Of a stretch of DNA of 40,397 nt, positions 5,100 to 8,147 are shown piece after piece (the first letter of the stretch is position 1; each line of letters opens with the position of its first letter). The stretch lies in IMG/VR virus record IMGVR_UViG_2663763428_000010; one strand, written 5' to 3'. The notes under the pieces are model-generated. The model searched no databases. It saw nothing but the letters and a program-made list of their open reading frames with translations, and was not told the origin of the DNA. This stretch comes from a virus. Its lineage: Duplodnaviria; Heunggongvirae; Uroviricota; Caudoviricetes. The position numbers were made by a program, and so were the translations under genes.

Positions 5100-5684
5100 T
5101 TATTGTTTGTTTTTTTCGTTCTGGTTGATGACAAATTCAATGTAACTTTCGATCTTTGCTTTCTCGGTTTCGGGTAACAATGCGTAGCGCGAGCGATCAT
5201 AGTTGATGGTCGCAGGGTCGTGCGGGTGAATCAGTAATTCATAGCCGTGACGCCCGAATGCGGATGCAACATTCTCCAGGGTGGAAATGGAAACGCTGAC
5301 CTCATTGTTTAACAGGCGGCTGATTGTCACCTGGGCGACGCCGGATGCGCGGTGAAGTTTTCCCTGTGTTGAAAGGTCGCGGCTTTCGCTCATCCAGCGT
5401 TCCAGGTTGTGAGCCGCAAGCTGACCTATATCGCTCGGGCCGACAGGCTGAAAACCCTCCTGAGAAAGCGAACGATCAATATCAAGCCAGTTACGGGGTT
5501 TATTGGCGGCAGCTTCAATTTTTCGTGCAACCTGGTCGCCGATAACCTTCTTGCCAAGAGCCCAGCGGTTTACCAGATTTGCCTGAGTTCCAAGTTTTTC
5601 TGCCATCCGCGTCTGAACACCATTGAATTCACGGTCGATCAAGTCGTTGAGATTTTGCCTGCGGACGTCCTGGATACTTTTCAT
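5100..5684 (-). CDS. Prophage repressor, tandem HTH_XRE domains, no S24 peptidase domain
   Basis: 194 aa; two Cro/CI-type HTH-like segments; divergent from a Cro-like gene across an operator-rich intergenic region. Confidence 0.7.
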   Translation of the reverse strand: MKSIQDVRRQNLNDLIDREFNGVQTRMAEKLGTQANLVNRWALGKKVIGDQVARKIEAAANKPRNWLDIDRSLSQEGFQPVGPSDIGQLAAHNLERWMSESRDLSTQGKLHRASGVAQVTISRLLNNEVSVSISTLENVASAFGRHGYELLIHPHDPATINYDRSRYALLPETEKAKIESYIEFVINQNEKNKQ

Positions 5685-5739
5685 TTTCTGGAAAATCGCC
5701 TCATATATGAATCAGTAGATGATTCAATTTAAAGCAATA

Positions 5740-5802
5740 TTACCCAACAGGTAAATGCACCCCACAGGTAACTATCCTTGATTTTTGTTACCTTATGGGT
5801 GA
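5740..5802. promoter_or_regulatory. Immunity-region operator cluster with three sites (5740-5754 perfect; 5757-5771 degenerate left half; 5788-5802 near perfect) and divergent promoters
   Basis: TTACCCAACAGGTAA, GCACCCCACAGGTAA, TTACCTTATGGGTGA between divergent repressor and cro-like genes; TTGATT -35-like hexamer at 5778-5783. Confidence 0.65.
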
Positions 5803-5838
5803 ATATTTATTATCTGAAATAAATATCAGGCAATAGCT

Positions 5839-6069
5839 ATGAGCGATAACGGACATTTCGATTTCAAAAAGCACTGGCTTGCACTTACTCCGGATGAGCG
5901 TGAAGCCTTCGCACAGGAAGCCGGAACGACGAGTCACTATATCCAGACTCACTTAACAGGTAAGCGCAAAATGCCAGGTAAGGTATTGATGAATGGGCTT
6001 TTTAAAGCCTGTAAAACAAGACAATGGCTGCGCTCAAAAGCAGAACTGGCATACTTCTTCTACTCATGA
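5839..6069 (+). CDS. Cro-like small DNA-binding protein
   Basis: 76 aa ORF divergent from the repressor, immediately downstream of the operator cluster. Confidence 0.55.
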   Translation: MSDNGHFDFKKHWLALTPDEREAFAQEAGTTSHYIQTHLTGKRKMPGKVLMNGLFKACKTRQWLRSKAELAYFFYS

Positions 6070-6090
6070 TATCCAGCCACAACCCTCTGT

Positions 6091-6116
6091 AGACCGCCAT
6101 CCGGCGGTCTTTTCAT
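6091..6116 (+). terminator. Rho-independent terminator after cro-like gene
   Basis: AGACCGCC-ATCC-GGCGGTCT hairpin followed by TTTTC. Confidence 0.6.
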
Positions 6117-6124
6117 ATCTATTC

Positions 6125-6139
6125 GTACCTCAAAGGTAA
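6125..6139. promoter_or_regulatory. Operator palindrome (GTACCTCAAAGGTAA) upstream of the replication operon
   Basis: Family member of TTACC-N5-GGTAA with one mismatch, directly after the cro terminator. Confidence 0.5.
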
Positions 6140-6219
6140 TAAAAAACCAAATATGGTTGATCTTTTTTTTGTGTCAGCACAAAATAACCGTAATCCCAAT
6201 ACTAATAACAGGGCTTACC

Positions 6220-6420
6220 ATGGAAATCATTACACGTATTGATGCCGCAAAGCGCGGACTTAAACGCTACTACACCGGAAAACCATGTAAGCACGGACAT
6301 GACAGTGAACGCTGGGTTTACAACGGACACTGTGTTGAGTGCACCATGGAATCAAACCGTCGCATCAGGGCAGAGATTAAGCAGATCATGATTAATTCCT
6401 CCCCACAACACTCAAGCTGA
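6220..6420 (+). CDS. Small Cys/His-rich hypothetical protein at the cII-equivalent position
   Basis: 66 aa from ATG at 6220; track ORF begins upstream at a TTG, rejected; PCKHGH...GHCVEC motif. Confidence 0.45.
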   Translation: MEIITRIDAAKRGLKRYYTGKPCKHGHDSERWVYNGHCVECTMESNRRIRAEIKQIMINSSPQHSS

Positions 6421-6435
6421 TAGCGGAGATTAATC

Positions 6436-7251
6436 ATGAGCAGACATGCAACAGATTGGGCCTGGGAGACAGATCCAGGTAGCTCATCATTAAAGCTCAT
6501 ACTGCTCTCGATGGCTGACAGAGCCGATGAATATAACCTCTGCTACCCCAGCATAGAACGCCTCGTTAAAGACACTTGCCTGAATAAAAAAACCGTGCAG
6601 GCCGGGCTTATATCGCTCATGAAAATGGGGCTTATTTCAGATACCGGAGAGAGAAAGGGAGCGACAAAAAGAGTGCGGGTTTTCTCTCTTAATATAACCA
6701 AAAACGGGAACATTAAAGGCAACCGGGAGGGGGGCAATGAACCAGAAAACGGTAATGTTACCGAAAACGGGAATATACCCAAAAACGGGATGTTGAATGA
6801 TCCCAAAAACGGGATGTTGAATGATCCCAAAAACGGGATCCAGAACCAGTCATATAACCAGTCATTTAACCAAGAGAGGGAGAGCAGGACAAAAAACGGG
6901 GATTCTGTGCATCATGACCCCGGCGCAAACAACGCCGTGATGAATAACTTTGTTCCTCCTGGTGGGCCAGGGCAATTAGGCAAATTTGTCATGCATGAAC
7001 AATGGCAGCCATCAGATGACTTTCTTCGGAAAAGCTCATTGCAGGGGATCTACCTGGACAGTCTGCCAACGGCACAGGAACTTGCAGAGTTCAGAATTTA
7101 CTGGATGGCTGAGGGTAAGGCATACCATCAGGCACAGTGGGAGCAGAAGCTGGCAAGGCGGCTGCAGATTAGCAGACAGAAGCAATCAACATTATCTGAT
7201 AACAACGTTCCGCACTGGAACAGCCCTGAAGCATGGGAGGATTTCTTGTGA
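6436..7251 (+). CDS. Replication initiator, lambda O-like, N-terminal HTH
   Basis: 271 aa; N-terminal HTH-like domain; internal iteron-like DNA repeats; stop overlaps the P-like gene start. Confidence 0.7.
   Translation: MSRHATDWAWETDPGSSSLKLILLSMADRADEYNLCYPSIERLVKDTCLNKKTVQAGLISLMKMGLISDTGERKGATKRVRVFSLNITKNGNIKGNREGGNEPENGNVTENGNIPKNGMLNDPKNGMLNDPKNGIQNQSYNQSFNQERESRTKNGDSVHHDPGANNAVMNNFVPPGGPGQLGKFVMHEQWQPSDDFLRKSSLQGIYLDSLPTAQELAEFRIYWMAEGKAYHQAQWEQKLARRLQISRQKQSTLSDNNVPHWNSPEAWEDFL
6697..6841. repeat. Iteron-like direct repeats (core CCAAAAACGGGA) including an exact 24-bp tandem duplication at 6778-6825; candidate replication origin
   Basis: Repeated motif at 6697, 6741, 6759, 6778, 6802, 6826 and 6888; followed by AT-rich repeated CCAGTCAT(A/T)TAACCA. 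Confidence 0.55.
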
Positions 7252-8033
7252 ACAACGTTTTTACCGCGATACAAAACCGTGACGGAGAAGCCCTTTCTCG
7301 CATGTCAGGTTATGAGCATCAGTACGTCAACAATGACAATGTGGTTAACATGTCAGCAGAGAGGCTTGTTGATGCCCTTTTCAAACAGCTGAAACAACTG
7401 TTTCCGGCGGCAGTGGTAACCAACCTGAAGACGCCAGAGCAGGAAGTAGCTGCAAAACAGCAGTGGATTGCTGCGTTTGCCGAAGGGGGGATCCGAACCC
7501 GTGAACAGGTTTCTGCTGGTATGCGCCACGCCCGCGCCAGTGAATCTCCGTTCTGGCCGTCGCCTGGGCAATTCATCAAGTGGTGTAAAGACAGCAAGAT
7601 GGTTCTTGGCGTCACCATTGACGATGTGATGGCGGAGTTTCACCGGTACAGCAAGGAAAAAAGTTTATATCCTGGTGGTCCCGAAAGATTCCCGTGGCGA
7701 CATCCGGTTATGTACTGGGTCGTATGTGATACCCGCCGTGCAATGTATCAGCGCCAGCTTAGCGAGATTGAGGTTGAGAAACACGCGCGCAGGCTGCTCG
7801 ATGATTGGGCGAAAAAGGTGGCTTCCGGACAGCAGATACCCGATCCGGTGATCAGCATACAGGCAAAGCCAGAACCCATGAGTACACCTCCGGACACAGG
7901 GAGAGACGTTTACCATCCACCAGGGCGAAGTTTCGGGTGCATGCCTAACGCCGCCACCCTTGGTGGAATAACACCGGCGCAGTGGCTGATGGAGGAATAC
8001 AGGCGAGGAAAGGCGGCAGGATTTATCAAGTAA
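7248..8033 (+). CDS. Replication protein P-like (helicase loader)
   Basis: Central region RTREQVSAGMRHARA..PFWPSPGQFIKWC resembles lambda P as recalled; GTG at 7248 with GGAGG RBS overlapping O stop (GTGA). Confidence 0.75.
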   Translation: MNNVFTAIQNRDGEALSRMSGYEHQYVNNDNVVNMSAERLVDALFKQLKQLFPAAVVTNLKTPEQEVAAKQQWIAAFAEGGIRTREQVSAGMRHARASESPFWPSPGQFIKWCKDSKMVLGVTIDDVMAEFHRYSKEKSLYPGGPERFPWRHPVMYWVVCDTRRAMYQRQLSEIEVEKHARRLLDDWAKKVASGQQIPDPVISIQAKPEPMSTPPDTGRDVYHPPGRSFGCMPNAATLGGITPAQWLMEEYRRGKAAGFIK

Positions 8034-8038
8034 TACCA

Positions 8039-8058
8039 GCGCGATAGCGCATTTTTTT
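8039..8058 (+). terminator. Weak terminator-like hairpin after P-like gene
   Basis: GCGC-GATA-GCGC short stem followed by ATTTTTTT. Confidence 0.35.
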
Positions 8059-8070
8059 ACGCCTCAACAA

Positions 8071-8147
8071 TTACCTGTTAGGTAATAAAACATTCTAAAA
8101 TCTATTGATTTCGTGTCTTATGTGGTTTTTAATTACCTCAGAGGTAA
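8071..8147 (+). promoter_or_regulatory. Promoter flanked by two operator palindromes (8071-8085 TTACCTGTTAGGTAA; 8133-8147 TTACCTCAGAGGTAA)
   Basis: -35-like TTGATT 8105-8110, 17-bp spacer, -10-like TTTAAT 8128-8133 overlapping the second operator, whose right half also supplies the GAGG RBS for the ATG at 8151. Confidence 0.55.

Follow-up and report, generated by a model that had tools for sequence, protein, structure and literature searches.

Where a phiV10-like phage starts its vegetative replication is the question raised by a cluster of short repeats inside a replication initiator gene (6436-7251, plus strand) of the IMG/VR virus record IMGVR_UViG_2663763428_000010, a Caudoviricetes sequence of 40,397 nucleotides that we refer to, at its full length, as the window. 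A preliminary description of this DNA had likened the gene to lambda O and proposed that, as in lambda, the origin lies within it. The comparative tests that we ran, on dyad symmetry, placement, a P homolog, occurrence of the motif in several reading frames and the Edwardsiella phage GF-2, all agree with that proposal. At the level of sequence, we regard it as very probable that vegetative replication of a phiV10-like phage starts at the repeat array, within the stretch of the phage's own initiator gene that codes for the linker. The lambda-style intragenic arrangement is familiar from textbooks for lambdoid phages, and this particular origin has apparently gone without annotation or description until now. 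The phiV10 record has no annotated origin, and no description of the origin or its motif was found in the literature searched, although the phiV10 and epsilon15 genome papers could hold an earlier mention.

The array comprises six 16-bp dyad repeats at 6695-6839 of the type ATCCC-AAAAAC-GGGAT, that is, a 5-bp arm, an AAAAAC-type centre and a second 5-bp arm, with the consensus a/tATCCC-AAAAAC-GGGATg and an A5 tract in each copy. All six were read on the plus strand. Iteron 1 (TAACCAAAAACGGGAA, 6695-6710) stands 45 bp ahead of iteron 2 (AACCAGAAAACGGTAA, 6740-6755), which like iteron 3 (TTACCGAAAACGGGAA, 6758-6773) is of the 18-bp-unit type. Iteron 4 (TACCCAAAAACGGGAT, 6776-6791) is the first copy of the 24-bp unit, and iterons 5 and 6 share the sequence ATCCCAAAAACGGGAT (6800-6815 and 6824-6839), with 5-bp inverted arms around AAAAAC (ATCCC-N6-GGGAT); the last of them adjoins a set of tandem 12-mers. 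The start-to-start spacing is accordingly 45, 18, 18, 24 and 24. Allowing at most one mismatch, CCMAAAACGGGA had five matches in the 40,397 bp, all in 6698-6838, with 0.36 expected and with five matches reached in none of 100 shuffles (0/100). Tandem Repeats Finder (TRF) reported a 24-bp unit repeated 2.6 times at 100% identity (6778-6839), an 18-bp unit repeated 2.8 times (6740-6790) and the 12-mer AACCAGTCATAT repeated 2.4 times (6844-6872), and these three are the top tandem arrays of the whole window; its other tandem matches are two weak two-copy rows only. The exact 24-bp tandem duplication described earlier is thereby confirmed, as is the duplication of the peptide PKNGMLND, the repeats being in frame in the open reading frame (ORF) 6436-7251. 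By whole-window tandem and direct repeat scans, no other local family of direct repeats in the 40 kb exceeds two copies, and the same scans found no second candidate origin in the window.

Several smaller features lie within the array. A private C>A substitution at 6744 turns CCCGAAAACGG into CCAGAAAACGG in iteron 2, where 47 of 48 haplotypes have C, and it weakens the left arm of that iteron in this prophage. On the minus strand of 6750-6829, the right arm of an iteron pairs with the next left arm (GGGAT...ATCCC), followed by a T5 run, and three terminator-like hairpins are found there (6829-6810, 6805-6786 and 6763-6750). These hairpins probably come about because dyad iterons stand in tandem, but they could stop antisense transcription or allow single-stranded DNA to fold into alternative hairpins. 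An ORF on the same strand (6543-6830) was set aside as a by-product of the repeats. The core of iteron 3, ACCGAAAACGG (6760-6771), is shaped like the papillomavirus E2 site ACC-N6-GGT, with agreement in half-site geometry and in the A-tract spacer. This likeness is almost certainly a convergence between dimeric origin-binding proteins.

The iterons code for residues 87-135 of a 271-residue protein and fall between its two recognisable domains, an N-terminal HTH_36 winged helix (residues 18-67, E 1.8e-10) and a C-terminal DnaT-like domain (residues 184-251, E 1.4e-15), in a linker that the repeats themselves encode. The part coding for the N-terminal DNA-binding domain (residues 1-87, 6436-6696, plus strand) is the presumed iteron reader; the part coding for the DnaT-like domain occupies 6985-7188 (plus strand). 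In PHROG profiles the protein belongs to phrog_1032, 'replication initiation protein' (E 2.6e-108). It is 97-99% identical to phiV10 gp43 and its counterparts in other Uetakevirus (epsilon15-like) temperate podoviruses, and on this similarity the source of the window is a phiV10-like (Uetakevirus) temperate prophage of E. coli. The gene is present in 424 of 5,426 complete E. coli genomes. Its public names include 'primosomal protein I', 'DnaT', 'DnaT-like ssDNA-binding domain-containing protein', 'HTH domain protein' and even 'pyocin large subunit'. Residues 180-264 match residues 85-169 of E. coli DnaT in the structures PDB 4ou6, 6aep and 9zbt (E ~1e-19 to 1e-20). By its profile and domain matches, the protein is a phage replication initiator for which the 'primosomal' and DnaT names are misleading, the likeness to DnaT being confined to the last ~85 residues. 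E. coli DnaT thus shares its C-terminal single-stranded-DNA-binding domain with the last 70-85 residues of the initiator, whereas the N-terminal two thirds of the initiator are unrelated to it and full-length DnaT similarity is absent.

We then asked what is conserved at this position among relatives. Eighty species-level loci were gathered from Gamma-, Beta- and Alphaproteobacteria and Desulfovibrionaceae, of which 76 were long enough to score. Their diversity came from the species-level genome collection, as the viral-contig scan by alignment gave only near-identical phiV10-like loci and the best 120 matches in the protein homologue listing were all E. coli length variants. Across the 76 loci, the core CCRAWWHBGG occurred 188 times in the 400 bp past the HTH-coding part (6.18/kb) and 18 times elsewhere on the same strand (0.11/kb), a local enrichment of ~56-fold. 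Phage relatives that share the N-terminal domain, among them GF-2, the Vibrio phages H20 and VaK, the Acinetobacter phages AP22 and Ab105-2phi, E. coli PPompW, EBPR podovirus 1 and Burkholderia Bcep176, all have motif arrays directly behind the HTH-coding part. Loci lacking the CCRAWWHBGG core have different dyad repeats at that position, such as AACAGTNCCAACAAYGGAAC in many Acinetobacter prophages, or GTACCAAAAGTGGTAC.

Reading frame separates the DNA from the peptide. Of 31 arrays with at least three core matches, 24 use at least two reading frames and five use all three. EBPR podovirus 1, for instance, has GTCCCAAAAACGGGAC-type sites that encode TKNG, SQKRD, VPKTE, SPENG and VPKSG, and both GF-2 and E. 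coli PPompW carry ACCCAAAAACGGGA in the T-Q-K-R frame beside copies in the P-K-N-G frame. Since the motif is kept in two to three frames with unrelated peptides, it is the DNA that is conserved and not the peptide. A frame-independent dyad word of this kind can be accounted for as the binding site of a dimeric DNA-binding protein; a peptide repeat does not explain it. The coding part of the HTH_36 N-terminus is kept in all species-level relatives compared (71/71). The cassette of HTH_36 and iterons is joined to a C-terminal DnaT domain in seven of these 71, to Phg_2220_C in five and to DnaA_N in two, with many C-termini lacking a Pfam match. Downstream of the cassette, 14 of 46 loci have a lambda-P gene, two or three a DnaB gene and two an IstB/DnaC-like gene. 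Modular shuffling at the origin-coding linker, as expected of a cassette of initiator and origin, appears clear from these arrangements.

Immediately past the last iteron lie the tandem 12-mers AGAACCAGTCATAT / AACCAGTCATTT / AACCA (6842-6872, plus strand), a locally AT-rich, candidate unwinding element that was also found by TRF and that corresponds to the repeated CCAGTCAT(A/T)TAACCA of the preliminary description. They are followed by a purine-rich tract (6873-6903, plus strand), which includes a degenerate 'seventh copy', ACAAAAAACGGGGAT, and sits where relatives carry an A-rich run of the AAAAATAAAAA type. Tandem GAAYC ~12-mers, as a pair or triplet, come after the last and most palindromic iteron in 67 of 74 relatives (2.30/kb after the last iteron vs 0.04/kb elsewhere), and a three-part layout of iterons, a tandem GAAYC 12-mer pair and an A-rich run was found in 67/74. 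phiV10 has three 12-mer copies, and the 12-mers of Bcep176 and EBPR podovirus 1 read in several frames. From their position, we infer that the 12-mers at 6842-6872 are the best candidate for the unwinding element.

The stability of the DNA around the array was also evaluated. The array is bracketed by the two most easily melted 25-mers of the gene: 6680-6704 (TTTTCTCTCTTAATATAACCAAAAA), directly upstream of iteron 1, is the least stable (99.7th percentile of the window), and 6852-6876 is the second least stable (97th percentile). The AT-rich stretch reported earlier after the iterons stands in part. A patch of 24-28 nt has 33% GC (24 nt at 6844-6867) and holds the second least stable 25-mer, but the 40-nt composition profile is ordinary and does not show AT-richness after the iterons, a scale of 20-25 nt being needed to see the patch. 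The best 20-mer is 75% AT, in a gene with a mean of 52% AT. The corresponding figures are 85% AT for lambda, within the 90 nt that follow iteron 4, and a median of 90% for the relatives.

We compared the locus with lambda, for which the layout of the O-P replication module served as reference (PMC7466680). As in ori-lambda, the putative origin occupies the central, linker-coding stretch of the initiator gene and consists of several dyad iterons with ATCCC/GGGAT-type arms and an A-rich centre, ~18-24 bp apart, with easily melted, strand-asymmetric DNA on their promoter-distal side. The annotated lambda iterons (NC_001416) are ATCCCTCAAAACGAGGGA, ATCCCCTAAAACGAGGGA, ATCCCTCAAATTGGGGGA and ATCCCTCAAAACAGGGGG, spaced 20, 24 and 23 bp. 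In both cases a helicase loader gene of the P type comes next, its start overlapping the preceding stop by 4 nt; in the window, this lambda-P-like gene (7248-8033, plus strand; Pfam Phage_lambda_P, E 1.5e-56) has a GTG start that overlaps the initiator stop in GTGA (7248-7251), and the overlap is annotated likewise in phiV10 and in lambda O/P. The differences lie in the protein and in the dimensions of the array. The N-terminal domain is HTH_36 here and Phage_rep_O in lambda O, and the C-terminal domain is DnaT-like rather than lambda-O-C. The iterons are six and of 16 bp, whereas lambda has four of 18-19 bp, and tandem 12-mers stand here between the last iteron and an A-rich tract, the AT-rich tract being weak. 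For the N-terminal domain of the initiator, HTH_36 was the only Pfam match even at E up to 10, with no match to Phage_rep_O (PF04492), the family to which lambda O belongs at 5.7e-36. A direct homology with lambda O was tried and rejected, with no BLASTP match and an hhalign probability of 5% for a 40-sequence N-terminal profile against lambda O, and a PDB search with the N-terminal profile gave insignificant matches to winged-helix regulators only. The earlier label 'O-like' therefore holds by position and architecture, but not by Pfam family (HTH_36 plus DnaT).

GF-2 connects the two types of replicon. In its 'replication initiation O-like' protein (gp62), residues 1-139 are 50% identical to the window protein, and the part from residue 137 on shares 62% identity with lambda O 156-299. 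The gene carries ATCCCAAAATTGGGAT three times at 24-bp spacing and keeps the lambda GAGAATTCTG.CGAATCCTC.GAC element, and the DNA continues with GAGAATTCTGACGAATCCTCAGAC, the counterpart of lambda GAGAATTCTGGCGAATCCTCTGAC to the right of ori-lambda. GF-2 thus has in common with the window the N-terminal domain, 24-bp-spaced ATCCCAAAA(C/T)(C/T)GGGAT iterons and the CAGAA(C/T)CAGTCAT element after the last iteron, and it differs in its lambda-O-type C-terminal half and in the lambda-like palindrome right of the origin. By its composition GF-2 is a natural hybrid, a domain swap between two replicon types; the iterons are therefore at the exact lambda iteron position and were inherited with the N-terminal, not the C-terminal, domain.

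By analogy with lambda (PMC7466680), replication would proceed in three steps. Dimers of the HTH_36 domain would bind the six iterons and wrap the DNA into an O-some-like complex. The resulting strain would open the least stable DNA on the promoter-distal side, the GAACCAGTCAT 12-mers and the purine-rich tract (6842-6903). The DnaT-like domain and the lambda-P-like protein would then bring in host DnaB.

Repeat number was next compared among close relatives, a comparison suggested in the preliminary description. It varies: 86 near-identical genes have a total of 4-9 iterons with a mode of six (63 genes), and all changes are in frame. Regular-expression (regex) counts in these genes ranged from 2 to 6 for the 24-bp unit, from 1 to 4 for the 18-bp unit and from 2 to 3 for the 12-mer. 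Eight genes of 834 bp score like the 816-bp majority in these counts, and therefore at least one unit variant escapes the regex patterns. Overall, the gene measures between 792 and 888 bp, and in the 424 E. coli genomes that carry it lengths from 792 to 864 bp occur. Because these repeats are part of the coding sequence, each 18- or 24-bp unit gained or lost by slippage or unequal recombination alters both the number of sites and the length of the linker, which evidently tolerates length change.

Substitutions are spread unevenly over the gene. An alignment of 47 haplotypes of 816 bp has 82 polymorphic sites among its 816 (~10%), compared with one of 63 in iterons 4-6 (6778-6840), two of 32 in the 12-mers, one of 13 in iteron 1 and six of 33 in the spacer between iterons 1 and 2. 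The gene's most variable spot is the seventh copy at 6889-6901 (5/13 sites, with three alleles at 6896). The preliminary description had counted six to seven copies. The six dyad repeats at 6695-6839 stand, while the seventh, although it matches in this sequence, is hypervariable, and because of this high polymorphism it is probably not a constrained or functional initiator site. The phiV10-type temperate early region was also seen near an end of two longer records, Escherichia phage BP9 (PP488543, 138 kb, classed as Vequintavirus; 132437-138228) and phage PH444 (PP350014, 115 kb, 'UNVERIFIED_ORG'). These records are likely chimeric assemblies or prophage contamination.

Three other explanations of the repeats were weighed against an origin. 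The repeats might be a feature of the protein only, a slippage-prone low-complexity linker of [PT][KE]NG repeats, with the true origin elsewhere. They are indeed in frame, encode a segment rich in N, G, P, K and E between two folded domains, and shift freely in copy number by 6, 12, 18 or 24 nt, as a tolerant linker would. We nevertheless consider this explanation very unlikely. It is largely refuted by the occurrence of the same DNA motif in two to three frames with unrelated peptides, within genes and across relatives; in addition, dyad symmetry is meaningless for a peptide, in GF-2 the motif is inherited together with the N-terminal domain and stands at the exact lambda iteron position, and the window has no other repeat array. 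Alternatively, the iterons may bind the initiator but regulate, through autoregulation of O-P, copy control by handcuffing, or incompatibility and exclusion, with opening taking place at another locus. Control of this kind is exerted by the iterons of plasmids (reviewed in PMC4980987), and lambda is inhibited by ectopic copies of ori-lambda (PMC4488673 and PMC3349717). In this phage the AT-rich part is only weakly developed, and copy-number polymorphism could tune such control. The three-part layout in 67/74 relatives and the lambda-type right half of the GF-2 origin point instead to an adjoining opening site, the array has the gene's most easily melted DNA at its edges, and no second candidate origin was seen in the repeat scans of the window. 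Control roles would also add to an origin function rather than replace it, and we judge regulation in place of initiation to be improbable.

The repeats could also be read by some other protein unrelated to the encoded one, such as a host factor, a phage repressor, or a partition or packaging protein. GATC (Dam) sites at 6799, 6823 and 6837 overlap three arms of iterons 5 and 6, the first of them overlapping the left arm of iteron 5, and within 42 bp form the tied densest GATC cluster of the window. SeqA or Dam could act there, and control of the array by hemimethylation or SeqA is conceivable. GATC is, however, absent from the iterons of most relatives. Moreover, in Gamma-, Beta- and Alphaproteobacteria and Desulfovibrionaceae alike, the array is invariably accompanied by the HTH_36 segment, in carrier phages with unrelated virion types and different neighbouring genes, which is hard to explain unless HTH_36 reads the array. 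An unrelated reader is the least plausible of the alternatives, with almost no chance of being correct.

Certain observations nevertheless weigh against a replication origin in the linker-coding part. The literature search found no binding, unwinding or origin-activity experiments for this phage or for family members. The AT-rich element is short and, at 67-75% AT, weaker here than in lambda and most relatives, and there is no DnaA box in 5700-8100. Any homology between the N-terminal domain and that of lambda O is at most indirect, the link being at the PHROG level only, where the N-termini of the initiator and lambda O match the same regions of phrog_678, 345 and 270. In addition, the low polymorphism of the tandem copies could come partly from concerted evolution rather than selection.

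Other systems with iterons resemble this one in part. The Stx phages 933W and P27 have six iterons, of which the distal ones bind more weakly yet matter (PMC7466680). As in those phages, iteron number differs among close relatives of one replicon type (4-9 here), and only the proximal copies here are near-perfect dyads. 933W and P27 are true Phage_rep_O replicons with lambda-type iterons, whereas protein family and iteron length differ in the window. Iteron plasmids (RepA/RepE/pi, Rep_3) share clustered direct repeats, a winged-helix initiator, an adjoining unwinding element and a repeat number tied to control. Plasmid iterons, however, are found outside the rep gene, usually as direct repeats of 17-22 bp rather than dyads, and are accompanied by DnaA boxes. 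The initiator has no Rep_3/RepA-family Pfam match, and Rep-type matches are limited to sub-threshold RP-C matches in two relatives.

The DNA upstream of the initiator gene was annotated as well. A divergent repressor gene with two helix-turn-helix (HTH) motifs occupies 5100-5684 on the minus strand. Beyond it come a promoter-like site at 5785-5813 and a small cro-like ORF at 5839-6069, then a hairpin resembling a terminator at 6091-6110 and, at 6220-6420, a small ORF that is rich in Cys and His and has no Pfam match. Judged by these elements, the region 5100-6420 resembles a lambdoid immunity and early-right region, although the initiator itself is not of the Pfam Phage_rep_O family.

A wider possibility is that origins with HTH_36 initiators constitute a large undescribed class across Proteobacteria with a fixed three-part grammar, in which dyad iterons (G/A)TNCC-N6-GGNA(C/T) are followed by two to three tandem GAAYC 12-mers and then an A-run, the 12-mers being a new conserved element. 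This extension is tentative, and we think it rather unlikely to hold in full. If true, the 12-mers might serve the initiator as a periodic single-strand binding or unwinding motif, with a role like that of the oriC 13-mers or DnaA-trios, and replication or the incompatibility between co-resident prophages would be open to rapid tuning through iterons gained and lost in frame.

The understanding of how such origins work is left unchanged by the locus, which is useful for annotation and will not surprise the specialist. Derivatives of phiV10 serve as reporter phages (PMC9689055), and knowledge of the origin helps their engineering. The iteron copy-number polymorphism is usable as a strain marker. 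For prophages of Gamma-, Beta- and Alphaproteobacteria more broadly, the succession of an HTH_36 initiator, dyad iterons, GAAYC 12-mers and an A-run offers a sequence rule by which origins may be found, and for the Uetakevirus (phiV10/epsilon15-like) prophages the array provides a concrete origin candidate.

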